Below are positions 5,141-20,519 of a stretch of DNA of 64,000 nt, piece after piece. The notes beneath the pieces were generated by a model. That model was not told the origin of the DNA. It was given only the letters and a program-made list of their open reading frames with translations, and made no database searches. Positions within the stretch are counted from its first letter, which is position 1. Each line of letters begins with the position of its first letter. The stretch is taken from contig CAWGYA010000007.1 in the NCBI GenBank assembly GCA_963826715.1, forward strand, positions 192,001-256,000, in the 5' to 3' direction. This DNA comes from Candidatus Bathyarchaeota archaeon. Its GTDB lineage: Archaea; Thermoproteota; Bathyarchaeia; Bathyarchaeales; Bathycorpusculaceae. The position numbers and the translations under genes were made by a program.

Positions 5141-5228
5141 AATCGAATATAAGGCTTATCTTTGCACAGAAACGGAATACAAATATAAACATACAAAGAA
5201 AACAATAAACGTGGGGATAGACAAGCGC

Positions 5229-6158
5229 ATGGAAACAATTCGTTTTGATTACTTAAACACTTTCTTAACTGTAGCTCGAACACATAGTTTCTCAATTGCG
5301 GCCAAAGAACTAAAAACAAGCCAAGGCACTGTCAGCCACCAAATAGCTGCGCTAGAAGAATGCTTCGGAGCAGAACTTTTCAAACGGACATCAGATGGCA
5401 CAGAGGTCACTGAAGCAGGTAACACCCTAAAAGAAGTCGCACAGCTAATCCTCCAAGAAATACAAACCGCTAAAGCCAAAATCTCCGCAGCCGAACACAC
5501 CCTCTCAGGAGTCATTCGCATAGTCGCAAGCACTATACCTGAAGAATACATAATACCCGGGCTAATCGCTGAATTCCAAAAGAATTTTGCTGACATCAAA
5601 TTCAAAATAACTGCACAAGACAGCTTAACCAGCCTAAAAGGTCTACAGAACAATATCTTTGACTTCGCAGCAGTGGGCACAAGACTTGGCTTCGAAGAAA
5701 AATTTGACTACATAGAAATAAGTGAAGAAAATTTGGTCCTCATCACAGCATGCAACCACCCTTTAGCCAAGCGCAAAACAATCAAACTCACTGAAATAAC
5801 AAATTACCCCTTCATTAACCGCGAAGAAACCTCAGGCACAAGAATAGAAATAGAGACACTTATGGAAAAAAATGATATCCAACACAGTATTCCTCAAGTT
5901 GCCTTTGAATTAGGCAGCACTGAATCCGTGGTAACAGCGGTTTCTGAGGGCAGAGGCGTTAGCATAATCTCTTCTATCGCCGCCGCAAAAGCCTCCGCGG
6001 CAGGATTGGTTAGAGTTGTAAATATTGAGGAATCCAAAGGCACACGCAAAATTTACATGGCAAGACCAAAAAGGGCACTGCTTAAACCATCTGAGGCATT
6101 TTGGGAGTTCTGTCGCAGTTACAAGTTCAAAAATCAAGCCATTATTTGCCCGATATAA
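5229..6158 (+). CDS. LysR-family transcriptional regulator (selenium-metabolism-associated/CysL-like)
   Basis: HTH SFSIAAKELKTSQGTVSHQIAALE; substrate domain ASTIPEEY, REETSGTR and LGSTESV. Confidence 0.9.
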   Translation: METIRFDYLNTFLTVARTHSFSIAAKELKTSQGTVSHQIAALEECFGAELFKRTSDGTEVTEAGNTLKEVAQLILQEIQTAKAKISAAEHTLSGVIRIVASTIPEEYIIPGLIAEFQKNFADIKFKITAQDSLTSLKGLQNNIFDFAAVGTRLGFEEKFDYIEISEENLVLITACNHPLAKRKTIKLTEITNYPFINREETSGTRIEIETLMEKNDIQHSIPQVAFELGSTESVVTAVSEGRGVSIISSIAAAKASAAGLVRVVNIEESKGTRKIYMARPKRALLKPSEAFWEFCRSYKFKNQAIICPI

Positions 6159-9321: not shown

Positions 9322-10776
9322 TCAACCTCTAAGTGTGGCAAAGAAGCCCCGTACCACATCTTTCATTGATTGCAGCAGCGGATGCCGGATGGAGCCTGGC
9401 GTAAGATTCTCGAGGCGATCTACACGGAAGTAGATAGGGGGATGAGGGTCCAACCCAAGCCACTCCTGAATACGGTAGGAAGGTACACGTTCATAAATCA
9501 GACGCTGGAAACCAATTTTCTCTAGTGATCCCGCCAAAATCTTAGGATTACCTACCACCAAGGCTGAGACCAAGTCAGCGCGTGCCTCAAAGAATTTTGC
9601 GATGAAAAAAATCACAACCATAACTACCCAGAAATACGCGAAGAATAAAAACGACGAGAAAATCATCGGAAACAATGGGAAGAGCACATAAAAGCGAAAG
9701 AGAAACTCCGTAGAAACCAAACCATAAAGTATGAGAGGGTCTCTGCCCCGAAGGTGACCAAACTCATGCCCTAAAACCCCTAGCAATTCATCCTCTTCGA
9801 GCTGCACAAGAATGCCAGTTGTAATAAGCACCAACCCCCTCTTGGGGCTTGGACCAGAAGCGGCAGCGTTTGGAACCATGGTGTTTGAAACAACAATTTC
9901 AGGTATGGGAAAATTAAAGCGGTCAGCAATATTTCTAACTAGTTCATATACGTTAATTTTTTTGGCTTTTAAATTATCGACTTCACATGGAACCCCATGC
10001 TTAAGAAAAATTTTTTGTGCAGATCCAACATCGACTTCACCGTTTTTTGAAATTACTTCATCGTAAATTTCTTTTTTAATTGCTATTAAGGTTTCTTTGG
10101 GGTATGTCTTGTTAAAGCTATTTTTTTCGCTCACGGGCAGATAATATTCTAGTAAATGGATAATAGGGTTTTTTTCCGTAATGTGCCAGTCCGCGCTACG
10201 AGCGATAAAGCGGTTAGAATAGAAAACGAACCCAAATTGGATACCAATTAAAATCAAAGGTGCAATCCAAAAGGCGCCAGGCACAATTGTGGATATTGTT
10301 ATGAAGATAATCATTCCAAATACGATGAAAACCACAAAGAACAACACCTGGGTTTCTAAAAATAGGCGGTTGAAAGATTTCTCAGGTTTAGTGAAAGCTT
10401 CGGGCACAATTTCCTCGCCTTCTCGCCAAGCAAAAAAAACAGTTGCATCGCGTGTATTCTGCGAGAAAACCTGCATCGCAATAAGAACGTCTTGTTTAGC
10501 CTCTTCCACGGTTGTGTGGGATGCAACAGATGTAAGGGGGTTAACTTGTAATTCAAAGGGTGTGCCGCTTTTTAATTCTACCCCAACCAGACGGTTGCCT
10601 TGAGAGTCTACAACTATGTAAGATAATTTTTCTCCTTTAGGGGATGATTCCCGAACTATGTCGGTAAAGCGCTTTTTTTGGGTAACTATATACTGGGTAT
10701 AAATGAAATCGAATAGTTTTTCATAATAACTTGGCGGGACTTCAGGAGTTATGTTATAAGTAAAACGCGCGGACAT
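9322..10776 (-). CDS. M48 (HtpX-like) membrane zinc metalloprotease with extended N-terminal domain
   Basis: PNAAA, ITTG, GHEFGH, EARAD and HPP motifs; TM segments. Confidence 0.85.
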   Translation of the reverse strand: MSARFTYNITPEVPPSYYEKLFDFIYTQYIVTQKKRFTDIVRESSPKGEKLSYIVVDSQGNRLVGVELKSGTPFELQVNPLTSVASHTTVEEAKQDVLIAMQVFSQNTRDATVFFAWREGEEIVPEAFTKPEKSFNRLFLETQVLFFVVFIVFGMIIFITISTIVPGAFWIAPLILIGIQFGFVFYSNRFIARSADWHITEKNPIIHLLEYYLPVSEKNSFNKTYPKETLIAIKKEIYDEVISKNGEVDVGSAQKIFLKHGVPCEVDNLKAKKINVYELVRNIADRFNFPIPEIVVSNTMVPNAAASGPSPKRGLVLITTGILVQLEEDELLGVLGHEFGHLRGRDPLILYGLVSTEFLFRFYVLFPLFPMIFSSFLFFAYFWVVMVVIFFIAKFFEARADLVSALVVGNPKILAGSLEKIGFQRLIYERVPSYRIQEWLGLDPHPPIYFRVDRLENLTPGSIRHPLLQSMKDVVRGFFATLRG

Positions 10777-11063: not shown

Positions 11064-11462
11064 GTGGCAGTTTCCAAAAAAACTATCTTAGTTGTCGATG
11101 ACGACAAATCTATACTTCGAACATTTTCCCGTATTCTTGAAAAAAGTGGATATGAAGTTGACACTGCAGAGACCGGAAAAGAAGCCATGCAGAAAACCGA
11201 GAATCGGCAATATGATTTAGCACTTGTAGACATAAGATTACCTGATATAGATGGGACAGATTTGTTAGCGAAATTAAAAAAGCAGCTTCAGCAAACTGTT
11301 AAAATAATGATTACGGGTTTTCCATCGCTGGAAACAGGCGTTAAAGCACTTGATGAAGGTGCAGATGCTTATTTGGTTAAGCCAGTGAAGCCGCAAGAGC
11401 TTCTTGTTCTGCTGGAAGAGAAACTTAAGAGCCGGGAAGAAGCCGCAAAAGTAAGCCATTAA
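11064..11462 (+). CDS. Stand-alone response regulator receiver protein
   Basis: ILVVDDD, DIRLPDIDG, ITG and YLVKP motifs; no output domain. Confidence 0.92.
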   Translation: MAVSKKTILVVDDDKSILRTFSRILEKSGYEVDTAETGKEAMQKTENRQYDLALVDIRLPDIDGTDLLAKLKKQLQQTVKIMITGFPSLETGVKALDEGADAYLVKPVKPQELLVLLEEKLKSREEAAKVSH

Positions 11463-11649: not shown

Positions 11650-14529
11650 TTATTCTATATAAATAGCAGGTTGATAGGGCATAGCCATTGCTGAACGATT
11701 TTTAGGATCAAAGCGGTGCTCGTCAGATTCTCTATACACAGATATTTCAGCTTTGAATCGGTCATGCATAAAATCTGCAGCTTCTAAAAGATTTTCTCTC
11801 TCGTTAGCTTCACCGATTTTTAATATTTTGGTCTTGCGTTCGCTCGACACTTTAGTTAATGCCTTAATGATTCTGGGAACCATTGGTGCAATTTCTTTCA
11901 TATGTACCTTAAAGGTTGAATCCTTGGCGAATTCTTTCATAAGCTCATTAATTTTAGCTTCACCAGCAACTGTTTTCTTGAGAACTTTTAGATATACCTG
12001 CCATTTCCAAGAAGCCGCAATATAGTAGTATATCCGATGTGGAGTGATTTTCATAGCTTTTAGGATATTGTTTGTGTCATCCATCACGTCAATAATAAAA
12101 TTCTCCTGTTCTTCCGCAGCCACATCCACAGTATCTGCATTGAATTCAGGCCATTTTGCGACGCTGATGAATCCTTCCTCACCGTTCTGGCTCCAGAGTT
12201 CCTCGCACATGAATGGCGCAAAGGGAGCAAGCATTCGAATCCACACTTTTACCGCATCACCCAATGCTTTGGCTTCTGTGTTTCCTTTCCGCTGAATATA
12301 CCAACGCAAATCATTCCATGTTTCAAATAGTGCTGTTTGCAATGCAGTTCGCGTTTTAAGTTCATCTAGGCTTGCCGTGACTTCGCTTATGCGTTTCTGA
12401 ATTCGGCTAGTAAGCCAACGCTCCAATGCCGTATTCTCCGCATTTTTAGCTGAAGCAAGAATTGATCCTGCAAAATCCATCAGCGCCTCAAATTTGCTTT
12501 TGAGGTCGGAGACATTTTCAGCACGCCAGTCAGGATCATCCATGCCTTCTGCACCTAAAAGCAAACCGCAACGTGTGGCATCAGCACCATATTTTTCTAC
12601 AGCCCCCTTCATAGTGATGAAGTTTCCTTTGCTCTTATGCATCCCTTGCCCTTCAATCATCAGCATGCCATTGACGCCGATGGCTTTGGGCCAGTGCTCT
12701 CGGGGAAACAGCGCTGCATGATGGAATATGCAGAAACTTAGATGATTGGGTACCAACTCTTTTGCAGAATTACGTAGATCAAATGGGTACCAATAAAGGA
12801 ATTCACTACGCATAGCACACAGCAAGGTTGGGGTTATTCCAGCCGTTTGTAGGTCTTCTGGTTCTCCTCTGCCAAAGAAAATGTAATCAAAAACTTCAGG
12901 CGTTAGCGATTCGGCATTGATCTTGTTCTGTTTAATGTGCTTGTTTATGGTGTAGAACGCCATGTAGACCGTGCTATCACTGAGGGTTTCAATTATCCAG
13001 CCTTTTCCCCCAGGAAGTGGTGTTCCAAAGCCCGTGGTTCTGGCGCAAGCCCATTCCCGAAGCCAATCAATCACGGTATTAAACCAGGGCTTAGCTGTTT
13101 CGGGGAAGATGTTTAACTGCTCCACAACCTCATGTGCAAGTTCTTTCCATTTGGGGTCTGAGTAGTTAAGGAACCACTGGTCCGAAAGGATCTTCACAAG
13201 ACACGGTGTCATGCAACGGCAAACCACAGGGTCCGCCAGATCATACATGATTTCGGCAACTCCAAGTTTCTTGAAGTCAGTGATTAGGAGATCTTTAGCT
13301 TCGCGAATTGATTTGCCTGCATGTTGTCCGCAGTTAGATTTCAAGATGCCGCCGTGGTACTCTTTTTTGTAGAGTTCTTTGGTAGCTTGGTCAGCTTTTG
13401 CGTCGTTTTGATCGACTATTCCCATTTTATCGACGATTTCAACGGCAGGGTAATCGCCAACTCCATCAACTTTAATGATCGAGATGGGCTTAATTGCAAG
13501 AACTACTACTGGGTCTATGCCGAACTGCCTGAGAACCTCAGGTTTTCGTTGCAAATCTCGTAAAGCAAGCCAATCGTAGGGTGCATGGGCTGGAACACTG
13601 TAAACTACTCCAGTTGCGGTTTTCGGGTCAACAAACCACCCCGGGAGAATAGGAAACTTTAGGTTTGTAACTGGATTTGTGACTGTTTTGCCGATCAGTT
13701 CTCTACCCAAGAAACAATGCTTAACTTCGACCTTGCGCTCTTGTTCTTTAAGTTTTTCAGCAGCTTCTTGGCTAACTATCCAACACTCACCGTTAACCTC
13801 TGCTTCGACGTAAGTAGAGTCAGGATTGATCCACATATTGGTGATACCATAAACAGTTTCGGGTCGGAGAGTCGCTGCTGGTAAAAACGTTTTCTCATCC
13901 AATCTGTACTTTATTAGCGTATACTCCTCTGGAGTAACACCTTCACCACTTTGACGGTCGTGGTCGCCTGTAGGAGACTGGTCTTTTGGGCACCAAACCA
14001 CTGGGTGGGTGCCGCGAGTGACATAGCCTTTTTCTTTAAGGTTTTTGTACTGCCACTCAATGAATTTTTGAAAGGTCGGCATAATCGTTGTAAATTCGCG
14101 TCGCCAATCAACCGAGAAACCAACGCTTTTAACGGCTAAACGACCTTCGTCAGTATAATATTGAGCCATGTAAAGGGGGTCAACGAACTTCTGGAGTTCG
14201 CTTTCGGGTACGCCATCGACTTCGCGTAGTACTTTGATGTAAGCTTGATCTCCTCTCGCCACACGCTGAGATGCGCCTAAAAGAGGCTGACCTGTCCAAT
14301 GCCAACTCCATGGCCAAAGTACATTGTAGCCTTGCATGCGTTTGAATCTGGCGTAAGCATCTACGCGGGAAGCAGTAAAGGTGTGCCCAACATGGAGTGG
14401 ACCGTTCATATATGGAAATGGAAAGGTAACTAATTTTTTTTGGCGATTAGGGTCGGGGTTGGCTTCGAAGAGATGTGCTTCTTCCCATTTCTGTTGCCAT
14501 TTCTGCTCCATTTGTTTGGTTTGGCTCAT
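11650..14529 (-). CDS. leuS: Leucine--tRNA ligase (archaeal type)
   Basis: PFPYMNGPLHVGH, ATLRPET, IETLSDST, KELVPNHL and C-terminal AMPYQPAIYIE. Confidence 0.95.
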   Translation of the reverse strand: MSQTKQMEQKWQQKWEEAHLFEANPDPNRQKKLVTFPFPYMNGPLHVGHTFTASRVDAYARFKRMQGYNVLWPWSWHWTGQPLLGASQRVARGDQAYIKVLREVDGVPESELQKFVDPLYMAQYYTDEGRLAVKSVGFSVDWRREFTTIMPTFQKFIEWQYKNLKEKGYVTRGTHPVVWCPKDQSPTGDHDRQSGEGVTPEEYTLIKYRLDEKTFLPAATLRPETVYGITNMWINPDSTYVEAEVNGECWIVSQEAAEKLKEQERKVEVKHCFLGRELIGKTVTNPVTNLKFPILPGWFVDPKTATGVVYSVPAHAPYDWLALRDLQRKPEVLRQFGIDPVVVLAIKPISIIKVDGVGDYPAVEIVDKMGIVDQNDAKADQATKELYKKEYHGGILKSNCGQHAGKSIREAKDLLITDFKKLGVAEIMYDLADPVVCRCMTPCLVKILSDQWFLNYSDPKWKELAHEVVEQLNIFPETAKPWFNTVIDWLREWACARTTGFGTPLPGGKGWIIETLSDSTVYMAFYTINKHIKQNKINAESLTPEVFDYIFFGRGEPEDLQTAGITPTLLCAMRSEFLYWYPFDLRNSAKELVPNHLSFCIFHHAALFPREHWPKAIGVNGMLMIEGQGMHKSKGNFITMKGAVEKYGADATRCGLLLGAEGMDDPDWRAENVSDLKSKFEALMDFAGSILASAKNAENTALERWLTSRIQKRISEVTASLDELKTRTALQTALFETWNDLRWYIQRKGNTEAKALGDAVKVWIRMLAPFAPFMCEELWSQNGEEGFISVAKWPEFNADTVDVAAEEQENFIIDVMDDTNNILKAMKITPHRIYYYIAASWKWQVYLKVLKKTVAGEAKINELMKEFAKDSTFKVHMKEIAPMVPRIIKALTKVSSERKTKILKIGEANERENLLEAADFMHDRFKAEISVYRESDEHRFDPKNRSAMAMPYQPAIYIE

Positions 14530-14678
14530 AAAACCCACTGATTAAAGGTTTGGCTATTAAGAGTTTTGCTTTGGTGATACTGTAGTTGTGTAGTTCAAGT
14601 TAACGGGTTCATGAAAAAAGGTTTTACGTTTATATATTACGACTTACGACTTTACTTGTTGTGAGCTCGGGGACTAAA

Positions 14679-15467
14679 ATGAAAAAACTTGTCATAGCCA
14701 TAATCCTCTCATTCCTTATTTCACTACCAGTATTCACCACCACAGCAACCGCCATAACAGGCAATCTAAACCCCGACTCAAAACCATACGTGGGCGTAAT
14801 AGTCCTCCTTGACGATCAACAACAACCGATTGGCTATTGTAGCGGATTCCTAATTTCCCCGACCATCATGGTAACTGCAGGCCATAGCTTACTCAACGCA
14901 CAATACGTAAGAGTCAGCTTTGACCAAGGGGGCACTATCTACGAAGGTACACCAGAAACTTATTCTTCATACGTTCCTACGCTTTCGGGAAACAGCGAAT
15001 TCCAAACAAGCGACATAGGGCTAATAAGATTTGAACAGCCCGTTTCAGGGATTACAGATTTTCCAGTATTACCCACCATAGGCTTTACTGAAACATTGAA
15101 CCATAAAACAGATTTAAAAGTCATCGGTTACGGAATGCAATACCAAACAACACCAAGAAACAATGGAGTAACTAATTCGTGGATGGGCCAAGTTACTCAA
15201 AACAGTGCAACAGTACAATTGTTGAATGCAAACTTTGCTGGTAGCGATAAATATCTAAAAGTAACCGCTAATAACGCCCAAGGCAAAGGAGCAGTAGCAT
15301 TCGGAGACTCAGGCGGACCCGTTATTTACACCGATATGAATGGTAAAGACATCGTGTTAGCCCTTAACGCATTTGTTTCAAGCGCTAACTGCAATGGAGT
15401 AAGCTACCATACTAGACTCGATACAGAAGAAGTGCATAAGTGGCTTGAGGAGCCCTACTTGATTTAA
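14679..15467 (+). CDS. Secreted S1 (trypsin-fold) serine protease
   Basis: Signal peptide; CSG, TAGH, DIGL and GDSGGP catalytic-triad motifs. Confidence 0.9.
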   Translation: MKKLVIAIILSFLISLPVFTTTATAITGNLNPDSKPYVGVIVLLDDQQQPIGYCSGFLISPTIMVTAGHSLLNAQYVRVSFDQGGTIYEGTPETYSSYVPTLSGNSEFQTSDIGLIRFEQPVSGITDFPVLPTIGFTETLNHKTDLKVIGYGMQYQTTPRNNGVTNSWMGQVTQNSATVQLLNANFAGSDKYLKVTANNAQGKGAVAFGDSGGPVIYTDMNGKDIVLALNAFVSSANCNGVSYHTRLDTEEVHKWLEEPYLI

Positions 15468-15491
15468 ATCTGCTAATTCAGAACAGCGAAA

Positions 15492-15498
15492 GAGGTGA
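15492..15498 (+). promoter_or_regulatory. Shine-Dalgarno for peptide ORF 1
   Basis: GAGGTGA 5 nt upstream of ATG15504; TTTAAA TATA-like element at 15463-15468. Confidence 0.7.
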
Positions 15499-15503
15499 AA
15501 AAT

Positions 15504-15560
15504 ATGAATACAAAAAGAGCAATCAAAAAAGCAAAACCAATAACCTTCGGCGGTTGGTAA
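15504..15560 (+). CDS. Putative precursor peptide 1, MNTKRAIKKAKPITFGGW (18 aa)
   Basis: Hand-translated. Strong SD; immediately upstream of the prenyltransferase; shares the C-terminal TFGGW with ORF 16649-16690. Confidence 0.8.
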   Translation: MNTKRAIKKAKPITFGGW

Positions 15561-15571
15561 ACAATCATCTA

Positions 15572-15597
15572 AGGGTTAAATCCCTCACTTTATTTCC
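15572..15597 (+). terminator. Short hairpin plus pyrimidine tract after peptide 1
   Basis: AGGG-TTAAAT-CCCT followed by CACTTTATTTCC. Confidence 0.35.
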
Positions 15598-15633
15598 TAA
15601 AATTACAAATACAAAGACGATTCAATATCAATT

Positions 15634-16632
15634 ATGCAATCAAACTCTCTCACGGCCTTGGCTATAGAAATCATTGATAGGCATGGTAGTTTCGCGCTCA
15701 ATGAAGCTTCAAAATATATTTTGGAGAACAATGGTTGTGAAGGACTTATTTCTAAAGCATTAAAATATTATGCAAAGATGATTTTTCCGAGAGTTTTGCC
15801 TATCTTTCCAGCATTAATTGAATTATCCTGCGGATCGGTGGGTGGCAAACCCAATGAAACAAACCAAATAGCAACTGCAATGCTTCTAATTACCGCTTCG
15901 GGCGACATCCATGATGATATTATAGATAGGTCCACTCACAAGTTCCAAAGAAAAACTCTCTTTGGTAAGTACGGAAAAGACATTACTCTTCTCGCCGGAG
16001 ATGCCTTATTAATGCAGGGAATGGAATTACTCCAAAACAGCCTAGAACTTTTCCAACCTAAACAAAGAAACCAAATCTCCAAATTGATGACAAAAGCCAT
16101 GTATGAAATAACCGAAGCAGAAGCCATTGAAACTCAATTGTGGAAAAAAATTAACGTAAGACCAAAAGAATACTTTGAAGTAATAAATCATAAAGCAACA
16201 GTCGCGGAACTACACTGTAAGATTGGCGGAATAATCGGAGATGCGGACGAAGTTGCTTTAGAATGCATTTCTCGTTACGGTAGAACGATTGGTTTGTTAT
16301 CAACGATGAAAGATGAATTCTTGGATCTTGAGAATTTTGATGAATTTACAGATCGTGTGATCCACGAAATGCCGCCATACCCTGTTATTTGTGCTTTTCA
16401 AAATGAAGACATTAAAAATAAATTTATTCCAGTTATGAACCGTGATAAATTGTCAAAGAATGACGTAGCCTCAATTGCACAGGCGGTTTTAACCTCTGTT
16501 GAAGTGAAAACGCTAAAAGTCAAGCTGAGACAGATGGCTGAAAAAGAACTGTTGTATAATTATCTCTTGAAAGATAGCAAAATGGGAAAAGAGGCGGCAA
16601 TTATACTTGAGGCACTAGCTATTGAATTATAG
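15634..16632 (+). CDS. Class I isoprenoid-synthase-fold prenyltransferase, divergent (ComQ-like candidate)
   Basis: FARM DIHDDIID, LLAGDAL, HKAT and degenerate SARM KDEFLD; lacks GGKRxRP and the post-FARM RRG. Confidence 0.8.
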   Translation: MQSNSLTALAIEIIDRHGSFALNEASKYILENNGCEGLISKALKYYAKMIFPRVLPIFPALIELSCGSVGGKPNETNQIATAMLLITASGDIHDDIIDRSTHKFQRKTLFGKYGKDITLLAGDALLMQGMELLQNSLELFQPKQRNQISKLMTKAMYEITEAEAIETQLWKKINVRPKEYFEVINHKATVAELHCKIGGIIGDADEVALECISRYGRTIGLLSTMKDEFLDLENFDEFTDRVIHEMPPYPVICAFQNEDIKNKFIPVMNRDKLSKNDVASIAQAVLTSVEVKTLKVKLRQMAEKELLYNYLLKDSKMGKEAAIILEALAIEL

Positions 16633-16648
16633 CTAATTAAAAAAGTGC

Positions 16649-16690
16649 TTACCAACCGCCAAAAGTTCGAGTTAGTTTTTTGTTTTTCAA
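16649..16690 (-). CDS. Putative precursor peptide 2, MKNKKLTRTFGGW (13 aa, TTG start)
   Basis: Reverse complement TTG AAA AAC AAA AAA CTA ACT CGA ACT TTT GGC GGT TGG TAA. SD AGGAAGGAG (16696-16704) 5 nt upstream; TATA-like TTTTAAGT at about 16731-16738; T-tract after the stop. Confidence 0.75.
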   Translation of the reverse strand: MKNKKLTRTFGGW

Positions 16691-16855
16691 AGCTACTCCT
16701 TCCTCATTTGTAGTTTTGTAGTACAATAATACTTAAAAAGTTAGCGGTTGTAGGACACATCTACACTTCAATTTCAATCTAACCCCATAATACTGTTTAG
16801 TAATTCTGAATCCTTAATAATTCCCACGTTATAGGATGATTTAATGCGATAACGA

Positions 16856-18187
16856 ATGTCAAACAACGTACCCCTAAAGTCATCAAGGTTCAGCCTAACA
16901 AATGCTTCAGTCAGCAGCTTTTTGTTAGTGAACGCTTTCGTATGGTACCTTTGCGCGTTTAAATTTTTGCAAGATACAATTAACCTAAAAGGAATCTCGA
17001 GTGATTTATCACTGTTAGTAATAGGTGTAAACTTTTTAGCCTTTATTTTCTTTGGTTTTCTCACAACATGGCTTATTAACCGATTTAGTGACAGAAAAAA
17101 ATGGCTAAAATATTGGCTGATTGCAGGTCTTTTTGTCTCTGCAATATTTTTCTTCCTAAACTCAGCTGATTTTATAACTTTAACATTATTAGGCTGCACA
17201 ATAGGTGCATATTTTGGATTAGGAATGCCTGTGGTAGCCGGCTATTTTACTGCATGTACCGAACCAAAAAACAGAGCAAAATTTGGAGGCGCAGTAATTC
17301 TTTTATTAGTAGTATCTGTTCCAACTTTGACCATCATAGGAGCTTCAGAAACCTATCTAACTCCACTTGTCTTAGGTTTATGGTTAGTGATCGGTTTGGG
17401 ACTTTTATCGTTCAAAGCTCCCGAAAGTAAGGCTGAGCCAAAGAATCGGGCATCTTTTCGTTCTATCTTCTCAAATAGGTCTTTCTTGCTTTATATTTTG
17501 CCCTGGTTAATGTTCTCGCTAATAAACGACTTAGCCTCACAAGTAATCTCAAATTCCTTTAGTGGTTTTCCCTCATTCTTTTCACAAGGTTATGTGGTTT
17601 TCACAAATGTCCTAGCAGGAATTTGTGCACTCGCTTTCGGCTTTTTAGCAGACAAAAAAGGCCGAAAACGATTGGCTTTGGTAGGTTTTGCTCTCTTAGG
17701 AACGGCATACGCCGCCTTAGGTCTTTTTAACGGAAACTACGCTGTCGCATGGTTTTATGCAATCACCGATGGTGTCGCTTGGGGAGCATTCACCATGCTA
17801 TTCATAACGACACTATGGGGCGATATTTCTCAAGGCAAGAACGGTGAAAAATACTACCTTTTAGGAATTTTACCTTATCTTTTTTCAGTCTTTGCAGGCG
17901 ACTCAATGGGTGCATACTTAGCCCAGAACAACCTTATTTCGGAAACAACTGTCTTTTCTTTTGCTGCCTTCTTTCTATTCGCAGCAACATTACCTTTGTT
18001 TTATGCTCCCGAAACATTACCTGAGAAAGTAATCAAAGATTTGGACATTATGAGTTACGTGGAGAAAGCAAAGAAGAAAGCAGATGAAGGCACCAAAAAA
18101 ACCCGCAAAGAAGATAACTCCAATACCTCAATAGAAGATGACAAAAGCTACGAAGAAGCTAGAAAATTAGCAGAAAAATACTATTAA
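16856..18187 (+). CDS. MFS transporter
   Basis: About 12 hydrophobic segments, motif A GFLADKKGRK, and APETL after the last TM. Confidence 0.85.
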   Translation: MSNNVPLKSSRFSLTNASVSSFLLVNAFVWYLCAFKFLQDTINLKGISSDLSLLVIGVNFLAFIFFGFLTTWLINRFSDRKKWLKYWLIAGLFVSAIFFFLNSADFITLTLLGCTIGAYFGLGMPVVAGYFTACTEPKNRAKFGGAVILLLVVSVPTLTIIGASETYLTPLVLGLWLVIGLGLLSFKAPESKAEPKNRASFRSIFSNRSFLLYILPWLMFSLINDLASQVISNSFSGFPSFFSQGYVVFTNVLAGICALAFGFLADKKGRKRLALVGFALLGTAYAALGLFNGNYAVAWFYAITDGVAWGAFTMLFITTLWGDISQGKNGEKYYLLGILPYLFSVFAGDSMGAYLAQNNLISETTVFSFAAFFLFAATLPLFYAPETLPEKVIKDLDIMSYVEKAKKKADEGTKKTRKEDNSNTSIEDDKSYEEARKLAEKYY

Positions 18188-18211: not shown

Positions 18212-19342
18212 ATGTTCTTCCACGTGATACTCACCAGTGACTGCAACTTGCAATGCAAATACTGCTTTGGGGAGAGCCTTGATGACTTCGATGAGGCCTT
18301 CGGGGGAGACATAAAAATAGACTATGAATTACCACGAAACCTGAACTACGATCTGACGATGCTTAAGCACTTTTGTAGCCAGGATCCAGATTGTGTGCTT
18401 ACTTTCTATGGCGGTGAACCTCTGCTGCAAACAAGTAAACTGAGGGAAATAATGGACACCATCACACCTAAGCATTATATGATGCAGACTAACGGCTTGC
18501 TTCTTGACAAGCTCGAAGCTAAATACATCAATCGCTTCCACACTTTATTAGTATCAATTGATGGTGAAGAAGCCCTAACTGACCACTACCGTGGCAAAGG
18601 CACTTTCCGCAAAGTCATAGACAATCTAAAGCTGATTAGAAACAATGGTTTCAACGGTGAATTGATCGCGCGGATGACTATTATGGAGGAAACTGATATT
18701 GAAAAACAGGTCAAATGGCTCCTTCAAAATGATGAATTCAGCTTCACTTCAATTCATTGGCAGCTAAATGCTGGTTTTTGGGGAAATGATTTACCCAGGC
18801 GCAACTTTGAGCAGTGGAGCAAAAGTAGTTACATTCCTGGAGTTTACGCGCTGGTCCGTTTCTGGGTAGATTTCATGGACAAGCAAGGTAAGGTTTTGAA
18901 GTTATATCCCTTGTTGGGTATAGCAAACTCCCTTTTGCATGGAGAGAGGGATTGCCTTATGCGGTGCGGCGGAGGCTGGACAAACTATGCTATTCAAACT
19001 GATGGCTATCTAATTCCGTGTCCTACCATGTGGGGCATGAAAGACTATTATTTAGGGCACATAAAAAATACAAATCCGCTAAAACTGCGTAAAATGTTTG
19101 TTGAACAGAAACCCTGTAGCGAATGCAAAATCATAGGTATATGTGGAGGACGTTGCCTATATACTAACATAACCAAACGTTGGGCCGATCAAGACTATAC
19201 CAAAGTTTGCCAAACCGTTGAACAACTCATCGCTGCAGTGGAAGCTGAAATGCCCAAAATACGAAACCTGATACATGAGGGCAGAATTGGGCTAAGCGAT
19301 TTTGATTATGTAAAATATAACGGCTGCGAAATTATACCATAG
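18212..19342 (+). CDS. Radical SAM/SPASM protein (resembles the AF0577/TIGR04084 putative peptide-modifying family)
   Basis: CNLQCKYC, FYGGEP and QTNG; SPASM Cys set CGGG..PCP..CSECKIIGICGGRC..C; C-terminal EIIP. Confidence 0.85.
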   Translation: MFFHVILTSDCNLQCKYCFGESLDDFDEAFGGDIKIDYELPRNLNYDLTMLKHFCSQDPDCVLTFYGGEPLLQTSKLREIMDTITPKHYMMQTNGLLLDKLEAKYINRFHTLLVSIDGEEALTDHYRGKGTFRKVIDNLKLIRNNGFNGELIARMTIMEETDIEKQVKWLLQNDEFSFTSIHWQLNAGFWGNDLPRRNFEQWSKSSYIPGVYALVRFWVDFMDKQGKVLKLYPLLGIANSLLHGERDCLMRCGGGWTNYAIQTDGYLIPCPTMWGMKDYYLGHIKNTNPLKLRKMFVEQKPCSECKIIGICGGRCLYTNITKRWADQDYTKVCQTVEQLIAAVEAEMPKIRNLIHEGRIGLSDFDYVKYNGCEIIP

Positions 19343-19391: not shown

Positions 19392-20519
19392 TTATTTTGA
19401 TAATTTTTCTTCTTGAGAGATATTGTGTTTGTTTTCATTATCGGTTTTCTTTCTTGCTTTCTGAAGGCGTCTCCTACTGATGAAGTTTGAGTCTGGAGCA
19501 AGAACTGTAAATTGAAAAGCAATGTATGACAGAACAGTTTTAATGAAGAAAATCACTACTCCACTTAGCAAAGCCACAGATGCTCCTATGGCGAAAGGAA
19601 CACCCAGCGCGTTGTAGATTTCACTTGAAATTATTTGAGCATACCCAATAAAAGCATATCCTTGAGCTTCAACATTACCTGCGACTGAACGAACTATTAC
19701 AACCTTGTCAAGTGGAATTAGTTGTCCAAGTGATGCGAACACAAAAAGTAAGGCGAGGACTTCAAATCCCCACGCAAAAAATGAAAGTATCATCGGTTTT
19801 ATAAGCACTCTAGTGTTTTGCAACAACTCCTTCATGCCTTCATGATAATCATCCAACGCTTTTTGCACCTTAATTTCCAATAGCGCGAGTCTTTTGCGAT
19901 TTCTACCCAGGGACGATATGAACCCGAATAGAGTACTGACAAACTTCTTTGCGCTGTTAGGTTTAAAACTAGCAAGGAGCAGTATGAAAAGCGGCAGAGT
20001 TAGAAGGAACATTATGCTCCCAAGAGTTATGAGAAGAGAACCTTCGAGAGTGTAGTTCAGTAGAAGCAGAATAATCCCAAGAATCATGCTGCCTAAGTTG
20101 AATATTGCTTCATATACATTCTTTGCAACAACCGAAGCTACAGCTTTACCACTTTCTATCTTTGGGTCTTTATTGAGAATATATGCTTTAAATAAGTCGC
20201 CTGACCATCCTCCCGGAATCAAATTATCTACAAATACTCCGACCCAATAGAGAATGTATGTTCGGCGAAAACTTAACCTAATCTTTAAGGTTTTGAGGAG
20301 CTGGAACCAAACTAGAGTGTGAAAAGTTAATGATATTAAGACGCTAGCGATTGCCAAAGCATAGATGCCTATGTTTACTTTTTCTATAACCGCAATTAAT
20401 TCGGCCAGACCAACGAAGTACAGAAGATAAAAAATCAGTCCTGTGTAGCCAAGTAACGCTGAAATAAGTATCCATTTTTTAATCGAAGGGCTAATCAAAG
20501 GATGTTGGTCTTTTGTCAT
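19392..20519 (-). CDS. Lysylphosphatidylglycerol-synthase TM / flippase-like (UPF0104) membrane protein
   Basis: FVDNLIPGGWSGDLFKAY motif; multiple TM segments. Confidence 0.75.
   Translation of the reverse strand: MTKDQHPLISPSIKKWILISALLGYTGLIFYLLYFVGLAELIAVIEKVNIGIYALAIASVLISLTFHTLVWFQLLKTLKIRLSFRRTYILYWVGVFVDNLIPGGWSGDLFKAYILNKDPKIESGKAVASVVAKNVYEAIFNLGSMILGIILLLLNYTLEGSLLITLGSIMFLLTLPLFILLLASFKPNSAKKFVSTLFGFISSLGRNRKRLALLEIKVQKALDDYHEGMKELLQNTRVLIKPMILSFFAWGFEVLALLFVFASLGQLIPLDKVVIVRSVAGNVEAQGYAFIGYAQIISSEIYNALGVPFAIGASVALLSGVVIFFIKTVLSYIAFQFTVLAPDSNFISRRRLQKARKKTDNENKHNISQEEKLSK

Follow-up and report, generated by a model that had tools for sequence, protein, structure and literature searches.

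The window analysed here, a 64,000-nucleotide stretch of a Bathyarchaeia genome, contains a gene for a polyprenyl-synthetase-like enzyme which is flanked by two micro-ORFs with the same C-terminal ending, TFGGW, and the gene set most likely makes small lipid-tagged peptides. Judged from the sequences, we regard it as fairly probable that the locus encodes a ComQ/PalQ-like pathway for tryptophan-prenylated peptides, which would be the first in archaea. Comparative evidence supports a gene layout of the peptide-modification (RiPP-like) kind (Table 1).

Table 1. Features of the locus; positions are those of the window, except for the canonical synthase, for which they are those of its own locus.
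Feature	Position	Strand	Remarks
Secreted chymotrypsin-fold (S1) serine protease	14661-15467	+	Trypsin PF00089, 3.6e-12; may remove the leader of the upstream-type peptide
Shine-Dalgarno GAGGTGA of the upstream micro-ORF	15492-15498	+	Conserved in relatives
Upstream-type precursor peptide gene	15504-15560	+	18 aa, with a K/R-rich leader and the core TFGGW directly before the stop codon
Trans-isoprenyl-diphosphate-synthase-like enzyme (P0001, 332 aa)	15634-16632	+	PF00348, 2e-20; proposed peptide Trp prenyltransferase
Downstream-type precursor peptide gene	16649-16690	-	13 aa, TTG start; Arg as last leader residue, followed by the core TFGGW and the stop codon
Shine-Dalgarno GGAAGGAG of the downstream micro-ORF	16696-16703	-	Conserved in relatives
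Conserved block TGTACTACA	16717-16725	-	Presumably in the 5' leader or at the start of the transcript for the downstream peptide
BRE/TATA-like block CCGCTAACTTTTTAAGT, putative promoter of the downstream peptide gene	16731-16747	-	Conserved in relatives
MFS transporter	16856-18187	+	PF07690, 1.3e-11; proposed exporter of the peptide product
Radical SAM/SPASM protein	18212-19342	+	NCBIfam TIGR04084, 1.6e-87, above cut-off
Canonical synthase of the same genome	G000:C8, locus L065, 526-1647	-	GGKKWRP, RRG, FQMQDDILD present

Both micro-ORFs are present where a preliminary description of this DNA had placed them. On inspection of the sequence, the upstream one, MNTKRAIKKAKPITFGGW, extends from an ATG at 15504 to a TAA at 15558-15560 and precedes the enzyme gene on the same strand with a spacing of 73 nt. 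The downstream one, whose translation is LKNKKLTRTFGGW, is read from 16690 down to 16649; its start codon is TTG and not ATG, a correction to the preliminary description. The two had been described as converging on the enzyme gene from either side, which is true of the downstream ORF but not of the upstream one, as the latter lies upstream in the same orientation. A Lys/Arg-rich N-terminal part followed by the identical TFGGW-stop is seen in both peptides, and so are the synonymous differences reported between them (ACC TTC vs ACT TTT). A Shine-Dalgarno sequence had been proposed for each ORF and stands before both; gaggtga(a), at a distance of 5-6 nt from the start codon, is kept in almost every one of 22 distinct upstream ORFs, and ggaagg(g)a is kept in 13 distinct downstream ORFs. 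The TATA-like element, likewise postulated for each, was recovered for the downstream ORF only: the CCGCTAACTTTTTAAGT block, which we take to be a promoter on the basis of the archaeal promoter consensus, is situated about 50 nt before the start and is kept in most of the 13 downstream-type ORFs. The corresponding region of the upstream ORF, just past the stop codon of the protease gene, contains only A/T-rich DNA that is not clearly conserved in relatives. An Rfam E-value scan of positions 14500-17500 returned 0 matches; the conserved blocks are therefore not a described RNA. Scans for bacterial promoters and terminators gave counts at shuffle level, with bacterial models that are not relevant to archaea.

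The micro-ORFs are a genuine feature, which chance is far from explaining. The window has two occurrences of the pattern TTYGGNGGNTGGTRR, compared with 0.48 expected and with at least two in 7 of 100 shuffles; in the whole genome of 2,639,800 bases it has two matches only, both flanking the enzyme gene. Eight frames genome-wide end in GGW-stop, three of them with at least three Lys/Arg in the preceding 16 residues, and two of these three are the ORFs described here. The full criteria of our scan of relatives (a start codon, an SD-like purine run, 9-30 aa, at least three Lys/Arg, and GGW in the last five residues) yield three matches when applied to the genome itself, i.e. the two micro-ORFs and one elsewhere. 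No other pair of adjacent K/R-rich ORFs ending in GGW-stop exists in the 2.64 Mb.

The same arrangement recurs in relatives. We examined the close clade, defined by an identity of 44% or more, after leaving out the own locus and deduplicating genes at 98% DNA identity. Of 28 loci for which 300 nt or more of upstream sequence is available, 25 have an upstream GGW peptide; of 28 loci with as much downstream sequence, 11 have a convergent downstream GGW peptide; and at least one GGW peptide was found in 22 of 23 loci with both flanks, all of them counts that overstate the number of independent observations because related genomes are not independent. The last of these figures answers the proposal of the preliminary description to scan the flanks of enzyme homologues for short GGW ORFs; the sole miss (L038) has a peptide by eye. 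Over all 68 distinct enzyme genes, GGW-stop peptides adjoin 24 and other Trp-stop endings 7 more; our peptide filters found none for 15. K-rich peptides without Trp lie beside a few distant paralogues (L019, L091, L071), and on the tree the type of peptide tail tracks the enzyme clades.

Codon usage in these ORFs bears on the preliminary suggestion that the peptide is under selection, and agrees with it: across relatives, the third positions of the Gly codons vary and Gly-Gly-Trp is invariant. Among 22 upstream ORFs, the first Gly codon is GGC in 9, GGT in 11 and GGA in 2, the second is GGT in 9, GGA in 5 and GGC in 8, and TGG does not change; 13 downstream ORFs behave like the upstream set. 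Differences per site amount to 0.314, 0.351 and 0.478 at codon positions 1, 2 and 3, and the last five codons contain 101 synonymous vs 77 non-synonymous differences. The comparison supports the view that both micro-ORFs are true coding genes, conserved and under selection, and that they are linked to the polyprenyl-synthetase-like enzyme.

The organization of the precursors can be read from the comparison of the two peptide types within a locus. Among 11 loci in which both occur, there are 9 where the two peptides agree in precisely their five C-terminal residues, and the shared cores (TFGGW, SFGGW, GFGGW, SWGGW, QAGWI, VVGWL) differ between loci. Pairs taken across loci show such identity in 8 of 110 cases, and none of 20000 permutations reached the observed count. 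Because the last five residues are common within a locus and vary between loci, the pattern indicates that these precursors, 12-22 aa in total length, are divided into a K/R-rich leader of 8-13 residues and a five-residue core. Gene conversion is excluded for the shared core, since the codons differ between the two copies; a Ser codon in locus L042, for instance, is AGT in one copy vs TCT in the other.

The enzyme represents a small, separate branch of the trans-isoprenyl diphosphate synthases, with 176 representative clusters at E<=1e-30 vs 4874 at E<=1e-10. The FARM residues D94, D95 and D98 (DDxxD) as well as K103 and T108 are invariant in all 68 enzyme genes, and the FARM, the following Lys/Thr and the KT-type Lys187 are conserved as in canonical synthases. 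Motif I of these synthases, GKxxRP, binds the diphosphate of IPP. It is missing from P0001, which reads LPIFP vs KKWRP in the genome's own synthase, and its R position is occupied by F in 37, H in 15 and R in 13 enzyme homologues. In the FQxxDD motif, F is changed to S/A and Q to T/I, position 224 being T in 39, I in 17 and A in 3 cases. The second acidic motif has kept its acidic character as [DE]ExxD (positions 227-231: D 40/E 23, then E 53/D 14, then xxD; Asn at 227 in 3 of 68), and may have kept residual diphosphate binding. P0001 shares 23% identity over 180 residues with the canonical synthase of its genome; its best solved relative is the GGPP synthase 1wy0 (E 1.7e-19), and the second-best is Ord1 (9V4J, E 3.5e-13). 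Some homologues deviate in architecture: P0126 resembles a partial duplication, P0149 has an uncharacterized N-terminal part of 230 aa, and P0256, a squalene/phytoene-synthase fusion, scores far higher on the canonical Pfam family. These fused forms have no bearing on the micro-ORF finding.

The MFS transporter and the secreted S1 protease, like the shared five-residue core, had been missed by the preliminary description. The protease possesses the His, the Asp and the GDSGGP Ser, and its N-terminus, judged by eye, consists of MKK and a hydrophobic stretch. It is encoded upstream on the same strand in the loci of 17 relatives, all 17 of which have the upstream-type peptide; this peptide is found in 5 of 38 loci without the protease. 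We rejected trypsin-like cleavage after Lys/Arg, as the 189-equivalent residue is Ala and the closest solved relatives are collagenase/elastase, the E-values of these matches being weak (5.5e-05). Because such cleavage is not supported, we propose cleavage after small aliphatic residues. Among the 52 loci of relatives that extend 1200 nt or more downstream, 48 contain an MFS homologue; MFS transporters do not usually export peptides. The radical SAM/SPASM gene comes after the MFS gene in 8 of the 18 loci of relatives for which 2.8 kb or more of downstream sequence is available, and its product is possibly an accessory tailoring enzyme or else a mere syntenic neighbour. The protease-peptide-enzyme-MFS unit also exists in a different genomic context (L108, L109). 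A PADLOC search gave no match for the enzyme, the protease or the MFS protein, and only generic viperin-like radical SAM matches for the radical SAM protein.

A Pfam scan detected no histidine kinase among the window ORFs between 5.2 and 26 kb. The window encodes a receiver-only protein (11064-11462) that is absent from the 15.5-20 kb neighbourhoods of six relatives, and no regulator or receptor gene recurs near the module in these neighbourhoods. The quorum-sensing role advanced in the preliminary description receives no specific support; neither a histidine kinase nor any other gene for a receptor is kept together with the module.

The distribution of the module goes beyond Bathyarchaeia, which are among the most abundant sediment archaea. 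A convergent peptide of the form ...P[VI]R[LIF]W... was found in all seven Methanomethylicia-type loci examined, two of which (L095, L096) contain it as tandem double copies, and the MFS gene is present in six of the seven. By sequence comparison, the module is conserved across two archaeal classes, Bathyarchaeia and Methanomethylicia. Homologues of the enzyme labelled Methanomassiliicoccales (P0346, P0349) exist as well. An AmoA Pfam search in the second lineage gave no match, and neither did its control give any. Methanosuratincola petrocarbonis LWZ-6T, a member of Methanomethylicia, is in pure culture (PMC12244365), which makes the prediction testable in a living archaeon.

According to the pathway that we propose, the products of the two tiny genes would be precursors in which 8-13 leader residues, rich in Lys/Arg, are followed by the C-terminal core TFGGW. 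The cytoplasmic enzyme encoded between the two genes, probably descended from isoprenyl diphosphate synthases, would hold an allylic prenyl diphosphate via DDxxD and Mg2+, its IPP-binding motif having been lost, and would attach the prenyl chain to the terminal Trp at its indole, as do ComQ, StheQ and above all PalQ in bacteria. From the small residues before DDxxD, our guess is a chain length of C15-C20. The lipopeptide would be exported by the MFS transporter; the downstream-type leader would be cut after Arg, whereas the upstream-type leader would be cut behind a small aliphatic residue, with the secreted S1 protease whose gene immediately precedes the peptide gene as the probable agent. 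The sequences themselves show the genes and their conservation, the selection on the peptide, the common core, the motif pattern of the enzyme and the association of the genes; from these we infer the prenyl transfer, its acceptor atom and donor, the export, where the leaders are cut, and a biological role as a signal, an antimicrobial or a membrane-active lipopeptide. Points against this proposal are that the Gln near the indole NH in PalQ, ComQ-type enzymes and Ord1 is Thr/Ile in the archaeal enzyme, that the second acidic motif of the enzyme remains acidic, that our filters found no peptide for 15 of the 68 enzyme genes, that a few distant paralogues have Trp-less peptides, and that MFS proteins are unusual as peptide exporters. 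It is a doubtful idea that this is the first archaeal peptide-pheromone system, in which a prenyl-tryptophan pentapeptide would mediate kin-specific signalling (e.g. aggregation) in Bathyarchaeia and methyl-reducing Methanomethylicia. In this reading the core would vary by lineage like ComX pherotypes, in step with a dedicated, independently evolved prenyltransferase, and the receptor would be encoded outside the cluster.

Other readings of the locus have to be weighed against lipidated peptides. The peptides could be real and conserved and the enzyme still a prenyl diphosphate synthase or other terpenoid enzyme, whose lipid product would be used or exported along with the peptides without being attached to them; or else the MFS protein could export the peptides unmodified, as cationic, membrane-active molecules. 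We consider this rather unlikely. It would fit an enzyme that scores as polyprenyl_synt, has a GGPP synthase as its best solved relative and keeps both acidic motifs acidic, as well as the paralogues with Trp-less peptides or none found. It does not account for the loss of conservation in GKxxRP and FQ in a genome with a complete canonical synthase, nor for the tail types of peptides that follow enzyme clades; moreover, the invariant of the main-clade peptides is a Trp at or near the C-terminus after Gly, which is the acceptor context preferred by PalQ (PMC13290415). An improbable alternative assigns the modification to another maturase, e.g. the radical SAM/SPASM enzyme, and regards the polyprenyl-synthetase-like gene as a syntenic neighbour. 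SPASM enzymes often modify short peptides, the TIGR04084 gene comes after the MFS gene in the window and in the eight relatives mentioned above, and the next-best NCBIfam matches are peptide maturases. However, the gene is missing in 10 of the 18 loci, including close relatives with both peptides (L024, L107), and in the Methanomethylicia-type locus, whereas the enzyme-peptide-MFS trio is kept throughout, even in another genomic context.

That the micro-ORFs are regulatory leader peptides (uORFs or Trp-sensing attenuators) which control the enzyme or transporter genes is very improbable. The upstream ORF, which ends in Trp and precedes the enzyme gene by 73 nt in the same orientation, would suit such a function, but the more widespread type is downstream, convergent and equipped with its own conserved promoter-like block, two loci have two tandem identical copies (L095, L096), and a stalling peptide would have no need to share exactly its last five residues with another peptide of the locus while these residues differ between loci. 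Chance ORFs in A-rich intergenic DNA, finally, have a negligible probability: short ORFs are frequent, and 3829 frames in the genome end in Trp-stop, yet the specific class is found once elsewhere in the genome and beside the enzyme in nearly every close relative, with variation at third positions. This reading is refuted by the comparative data.

Prenylated-Trp ribosomal peptides (ComX, PalX, StheX) have so far been shown in a few bacteria only, as quorum-sensing pheromones or lipopeptide natural products. If the proposed chemistry is true, the same solution exists in archaea, with a separate enzyme branch and different gene partners (MFS, S1 protease). To our knowledge, precursors of 12-22 aa are among the shortest for a modified ribosomal peptide; their genes of 13-18 codons are invisible to standard gene callers and were recoverable from the comparative signal alone. 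For enzymology, the branch would provide a new family of candidate catalysts for C-terminal Trp lipidation. A search of mostly open literature found no paper on archaeal Trp-peptide prenylation or on a ComQ/PalQ-like system in archaea, in line with the preliminary statement that no such system was known; archaeal members may be present in the supplementary homologue lists or the similarity networks that accompany PMC10853753 and PMC13290415.

Among known systems, the genome's own canonical synthase and the archaeal GGPP synthase 1wy0 belong to the same fold family as the enzyme (PF00348), but GGKKWRP, RRG and FQxxDD are not conserved in the enzyme family described here. Ord1, an all-alpha indole prenyltransferase (PDB 9V4G-9V4J; the identity of 9V4J as Ord1 is from bioRxiv 2026.08.29.745113), also lacks GKxxRP in the aligned stretch. 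It differs in that it acts on free Trp, and its SARM has Gln Q216 and DD at positions where the archaeal enzyme has Thr224, Asp227 and Glu228. ComQ/ComX of Bacillus and StheQ/StheX of Sphaerobacter thermophilus resemble the locus in that a trans-IPPS-fold enzyme with a DDxxD FARM is encoded beside a small gene with Trp near the C-terminus, and in the short mature pheromones (6-10 residues), which are polymorphic between strains as the cores are here (bioRxiv 2026.08.29.745113). In ComX and StheX, however, the Trp is internal, 2-4 residues from the end, and the precursors comprise 55-69 aa (bioRxiv 2026.08.29.745113). ComQ enzymes attach a geranyl or farnesyl group to C3 of the Trp indole. The same source gives a pseudo-SARM NDxxx for ComQ vs [DE]ExxD in the archaeal enzymes; the Gln before the SARM of ComQ-type enzymes is missing here, and so are neighbours equivalent to the receptor genes ComP/ComA adjacent to ComQ. 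By motif, the enzyme, first described as ComQ-like, is not a member of the ComQ family (IPR033965), since it has neither NDxxx nor the Gln before the SARM.

The likeness to PalQ/PalX of Paenibacillus alvei (PMC10853753; PMC13290415) is closer. These sources describe characterised trans-IDS-like peptide prenyltransferases as acting on Trp in all cases, and PalQ as requiring a C-terminal Trp with a preference for GW/GGW ends. PalQ, too, is an isoprenoid-synthase-derived enzyme whose gene neighbours that of the precursor; the Trp that it modifies forms the extreme C-terminus, preferably after Gly, and the core is short (eight residues proposed for PalX vs five here). The differences in these accounts concern the long NHLP-type leader of PalX vs whole precursors here that are too short for such a domain, the conserved Gln (Q197) beside the PalQ SARM vs Thr/Ile at position 224, and the gene partners, since the PalQ cluster has a histidine kinase and the archaeal cluster an MFS transporter and sometimes an S1 protease. 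PalQ, compared here by its published description, is bacterial, and the present family is archaeal. The generic features of a RiPP cluster are present, i.e. a leader/core precursor (as we infer it), an adjacent enzyme, and a transporter and/or protease, and by analogy the closest functional counterpart of the archaeal enzyme appears to be PalQ rather than ComQ.

The gene of the 332-aa trans-isoprenyl-diphosphate-synthase-like enzyme P0001 is flanked by two micro-ORFs, both ending in TFGGW-TAA. The preliminary description had reported this pair, with an own Shine-Dalgarno sequence for each gene and synonymous differences in the common tail, and all of this holds: the ribosome-binding sites are GAGGTGA and GGAAGGAG, and the tail is encoded with ACC TTC in one gene and ACT TTT in the other. 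The second micro-ORF, for which an ATG had been assumed, starts with TTG. Both ORFs had been described as converging on the enzyme gene; the second does, but the first precedes the gene in the same orientation. In the entire genome of 2,639,800 bases there are just two copies of the back-translated tail TTYGGNGGNTGGTRR, both flanking the enzyme gene, and its backwards reading is found once. Eight frames of the whole genome (six frames) end in GGW-stop; three of them count three or more Lys/Arg among the 16 residues before that ending, and two of the three are the micro-ORFs of the window. These two also account for two of the three matches in this genome when a start codon, an SD-like run, a length of 9-30 aa, at least three K/R and GGW within the last five residues are demanded. 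The pair is more than chance would produce.

Features of the window and of loci around enzyme homologues in relatives (L numbers)
Feature	Location	Strand	Remarks
LysR-type regulator	window 5211-6158	+	near cluster
M48 peptidase	window 9322-10776	-	near cluster
Receiver-only response regulator	window 11064-11462	+	near cluster
S1 protease	window 14661-15467	+	
Ribosome-binding site GAGGTGA	window 15492-15498	+	upstream micro-ORF; purine-rich, right spacing
Upstream micro-ORF	window 15504-15560	+	ATG start, 18 codons
Enzyme gene (P0001)	window 15634-16632	+	332 aa
Downstream micro-ORF	window 16690-16649	-	13 codons
Ribosome-binding site GGAAGGAG	window 16696-16703	-	downstream micro-ORF; purine-rich, right spacing
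Conserved block TGTACTACA...ATACA	window 16717-16725	-	between TATA-like box and ribosome-binding site of downstream-type genes
141-aa ORF	window 16774-17199	-	overlaps MFS gene start on opposite strand; probably spurious
MFS transporter	window 16856-18187	+	
Radical SAM/SPASM gene TIGR04084	window 18212-19342	+	1.6e-87; start 25 nt after MFS stop
LPG_synthase_TM membrane protein	window 19392-20519	-	near cluster
Tandem identical peptide genes	L095 1850-1897, 1934-1981	+	15 codons; between enzyme and MFS genes; own ribosome-binding site each
Tandem identical peptide genes	L096 2948-2995, 3033-3080	-	15 codons; between enzyme and MFS genes; own ribosome-binding site each
Trp-less micro-ORF	L019 2332-2376	-	end ...TLPP
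Trp-less micro-ORF	L091 2451-2495	-	end ...RAGP
Trp-less micro-ORF	L071 2507-2563	-	end ...LFYI

Loci around enzyme homologues were collected from related genomes, species-representative genomes (17 loci, 15 titled Bathyarchaeota/Bathyarchaeia and two 'uncultured archaeon'), metagenome contigs (25 loci) and a phylum-wide sample; L003-L064 comprise 55 distinct enzyme genes after deduplication at 98% DNA identity. Among close relatives (enzyme genes at least 44% identical to that of the window, its own locus left out), a same-strand upstream micro-ORF with GGW in its last five residues is found in 25 of the 28 loci with at least 300 nt upstream, and a convergent one in 11 of the 28 with at least 300 nt downstream. 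The scan of homologue flanks suggested in the preliminary description thereby recovers at least one GGW micro-ORF in 22 of 23 close-relative loci with both flanks; at the sole miss (L038) the peptide is in fact present, a split enzyme match having shifted the coordinates. Loci that initially looked empty have a Trp followed by one to four further residues (...GGWG, ...GGWGIYS, ...AGWY/F/I, ...AGWPH). A looser pattern, whose background is 64 matches per genome, occurs in 11 of 18 both-flank loci of distant paralogues (less than 44% identity); it overlooks the peptides of L010 and L013, which end in ...GIGW and ...GFGW. With the class-wide sample (L066-L094) added, the set grows to 68 enzyme genes that remain distinct after deduplication at 97% protein identity. 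A candidate peptide accompanies 53 of them, that of L071_0 being doubtful; for the other 15 the filters used found none.

Some loci deviate from this layout. Three distant paralogues are accompanied by convergent K-rich micro-ORFs of the same style without Trp, which may use a different acceptor residue or be decayed copies. Enzyme paralogues occur in tandem or nearby in L017, L071 and L074 (two genes about 250 nt apart) and at 233845 and 237083 of G012:C10, a contig of a related genome; in L017 and L071, no peptide was found for the first copy. The enzyme copy at L039 4001-4999 (33% identity over the best segment, a very long branch of 1.04) may be degraded or misassembled; despite its divergence, the upstream peptide is the same as in close relatives. 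Another homologue, G010:C1:67067-68065, contains nine in-frame stops (three TGA, six TAA) in a genome with six matches, and is apparently a pseudogene.

The pattern of codon changes bears out the earlier suggestion of selection on the peptide and marks the ORFs as coding sequence, beyond mere conservation of the DNA. In 22 distinct upstream GGW ORFs the Gly codons vary at the third position (first GGC 9/GGT 11/GGA 2; second GGT 9/GGA 5/GGC 8), whereas TGG never changes and 21 of the ORFs stop with TAA; the codon pattern of 13 downstream ORFs is alike. Across 13 distinct 18-codon upstream ORFs, per-site differences at codon positions 1/2/3 are 0.314/0.351/0.478, and the last five codons differ by 101 synonymous versus 77 non-synonymous changes. 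The leader changes fast and keeps its richness in Lys/Arg.

Both peptide types are present in 11 distinct loci, and in nine of these the two peptides agree in precisely their last five residues and never in more: TFGGW (three loci), SFGGW, GFGGW (two loci), SWGGW, QAGWI and VVGWL. In the two exceptions the match is FGGW in one and QAGW in the other, where Y then stands against F. Between loci, five residues coincide in only 8 of 110 pairs, and none of 20000 permutations reached nine. Because the core codons differ between the two genes of a locus (Ser AGT versus TCT in L042, besides the difference in the window), the identity is kept at the peptide level and does not stem from recent gene conversion. 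Directly before the core stands always Arg in the downstream type (...TR, ...IR, ...VR) and a small aliphatic residue or Pro (I, V, A, P) in the upstream type; T and M also occur in loci with the upstream type alone. We infer that a processing site parts the K/R-rich leader from the five-residue core.

Ribosome-binding sites are conserved in both types, gaggtgaaa in the upstream and ggaagg(g)a in the downstream one. About 50 nt before the downstream-type start lies a conserved block, ccgctaacTTTTTAAGt, which by consensus resembles an archaeal BRE/TATA element, followed by a conserved tGTACTACA. The block TGTACTACA...ATACA could mark where a regulator binds or where the transcript begins; the similar GTAGAGCACAAATACAGGTGA lies at about 1975-1995 of L097, from a family NCBI-labelled Methanosuratus/Methanosuratincola. 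No Rfam family matches the peptide-enzyme region.

Of the 52 relatives' loci whose downstream flank is 1200 nt or longer, 48 contain an MFS transporter homologue, which nearly always comes directly after the enzyme gene on its strand. Among the 55 loci with an upstream flank of at least 1200 nt, 17 have an S1 protease gene before the enzyme gene in the same orientation; the upstream-type peptide sits between protease and enzyme in all 17, and occurs in only five of the 38 loci without a protease, all counts being from related loci and not from independent samples. The LeuRS gene is often found next door in divergent orientation; L108 and L109 have the protease-peptide-enzyme-MFS unit away from LeuRS, which argues that these genes belong together. 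The LysR-type regulator, M48 peptidase, receiver-only regulator, LPG_synthase_TM protein and molybdoenzymes do not recur in the 15.5-20 kb neighbourhoods of six relatives. The protease possesses the catalytic His, Asp and Ser, and its N-terminal MKK-plus-hydrophobic stretch looks, by eye, like a signal peptide. It has Ala at the trypsin Asp189 position, and its best matches, both weak, are to collagenase and elastase; this agrees better with cleavage behind small aliphatic residues than behind Lys/Arg, neither being proved.

Of 201 genomes sampled evenly across the class, 38 match at E<=1e-30, mainly in the window's family (21 of 27) and a few other families. In the phylum sample, 43 of 301 match, including 16 of 25 of one family in another class; one protein of this family is identical to an NCBI-labelled Candidatus Methanosuratus protein, and relatives at 85-92% identity are labelled Candidatus Methanosuratincola. 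All seven loci examined in this Methanosuratus-type family encode a convergent peptide MK.YNPTP[VI]R[LIF]W followed by 1-4 residues, with the MFS gene beyond it in six and two identical tandem copies in two (L095, L096). No peptide was found in five loci from three further families. The homologues P0346 and P0349, at 49-50% identity to the Methanosuratus-type enzyme, carry the NCBI label Methanomassiliicoccales, which points either to a module extending outside Thermoproteota or to binning errors. When the 68 enzymes are placed on a maximum-likelihood tree with the canonical synthase as root, the tail classes of the peptides form supported clades (SH-aLRT 95% for the GGW group of 31 rows, 98% for ...AGW+extension, 100% for ...GGW+extension), a support that is descriptive only, as relatedness alone can yield it.

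P0001 matches Pfam polyprenyl_synt (2e-20) and none of the NCBIfam models at their own cut-off. Over 180 residues it shares 23% identity with the canonical synthase of the same genome, whose motifs read GGKKWRP, DDIEDSSEMRRG and FQMQDDILD. Across 68 distinct family members, D94, D95 and D98 (DDxxD), K103 and T108 are invariant, D231 and R241 nearly so, and positions 227 and 228 are D/E and E/D; the Arg position of GKxxRP reads F/H/R (37/15/13) and the Gln position of FQxxDD T/I/A (39/17/3). In trans-isoprenyl diphosphate synthases the first Asp-rich motif holds the allylic donor with Mg2+, and GKxxR holds the IPP diphosphate. Read against this enzymology, the motif pattern suggests that the enzyme still ionises a prenyl diphosphate and has dropped IPP as acceptor. 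The residues four and five before DDxxD are small (S/A/G and G/A); by the chain-length rules of the fold they would admit a long donor, a faint hint at perhaps the abundant archaeal GGPP. The best match of a single-sequence PDB search is the GGPP synthase 1wy0 (1.7e-19), followed by Ord1 (9V4G-J, 3.5e-13), which the preprint bioRxiv 2026.08.29.745113 and section 2.4 of PMC13290415 describe as an indole prenyltransferase of the trans-isoprenyl-synthase fold. A profile search against 1.84 billion representatives shows how small the family is, with 176 clusters at E<=1e-30 versus 4874 at E<=1e-10. Two homologues are longer; P0149 (557 aa) has a 230-aa N-terminal part of no Pfam match with a Pro-rich linker, and P0126 (502 aa) looks like a partial internal duplication.

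In the pathway that we propose, the ribosome would make precursors of 13-18 aa, and the cytoplasmic enzyme would hold a prenyl diphosphate at DDxxD/Mg2+ and alkylate the indole of the terminal Trp. Gly-Gly would make the tail flexible enough for the last residue to reach far into the pocket, an argument made for PalQ (PMC13290415 section 2.4). The MFS protein would export the product; the downstream-type leader would be cut after Arg and the upstream-type leader after I/V/A by the secreted S1 protease, and both peptide genes of a locus would yield the same prenylated pentapeptide. What the sequences show is the genes, the selection on them, the core common to both peptides, the motif pattern of the enzyme and the partnership of the genes; all of the chemistry is our inference.

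The main rival to peptide prenylation is that the enzyme goes on making or handling a prenyl lipid which is never joined to the peptides; the synthase matches in Pfam and PDB speak for it, the divergent IPP motif against it. Another candidate for modifying the peptides is the radical SAM enzyme, encoded after the MFS transporter in the window and in 8 of the 18 relatives whose downstream flank reaches 2.8 kb; it could serve the module as an accessory or second tailoring enzyme, or be a syntenic neighbour alone. A role as regulatory leader peptides is hard to reconcile with convergent, separately promoted and sometimes duplicated genes, and with a core common to both peptides. The core diversity between lineages fits a specificity-bearing signal and equally an antimicrobial or membrane-active lipopeptide; the quorum-sensing label given earlier has no conserved receptor to support it.

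By analogy, we propose that the module works like the bacterial trans-IDS-like Trp prenyltransferase systems. PalQ/PalX is the closest likeness in published descriptions: PalQ uses a C-terminal Trp, loses activity on C-terminal extension and prefers GW/GGW (PMC10853753 sections 2.1-2.7; PMC13290415). Its cluster has an NHLP leader and a kinase gene, whereas the archaeal module has neither. The paralogues whose Trp precedes a few residues are more alike to ComQ/ComX and StheQ/StheX. Of the ComQ-like character attributed to the enzyme, the fold and the small adjoining Trp peptides stand, but by the motifs that mark out the ComQ family the enzyme falls outside it, having neither the pseudo-SARM NDxxx nor the preceding Gln. 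The distinctive features are a separate enzyme branch, its occurrence in archaea, extremely short precursors, and MFS and S1 protease partners.
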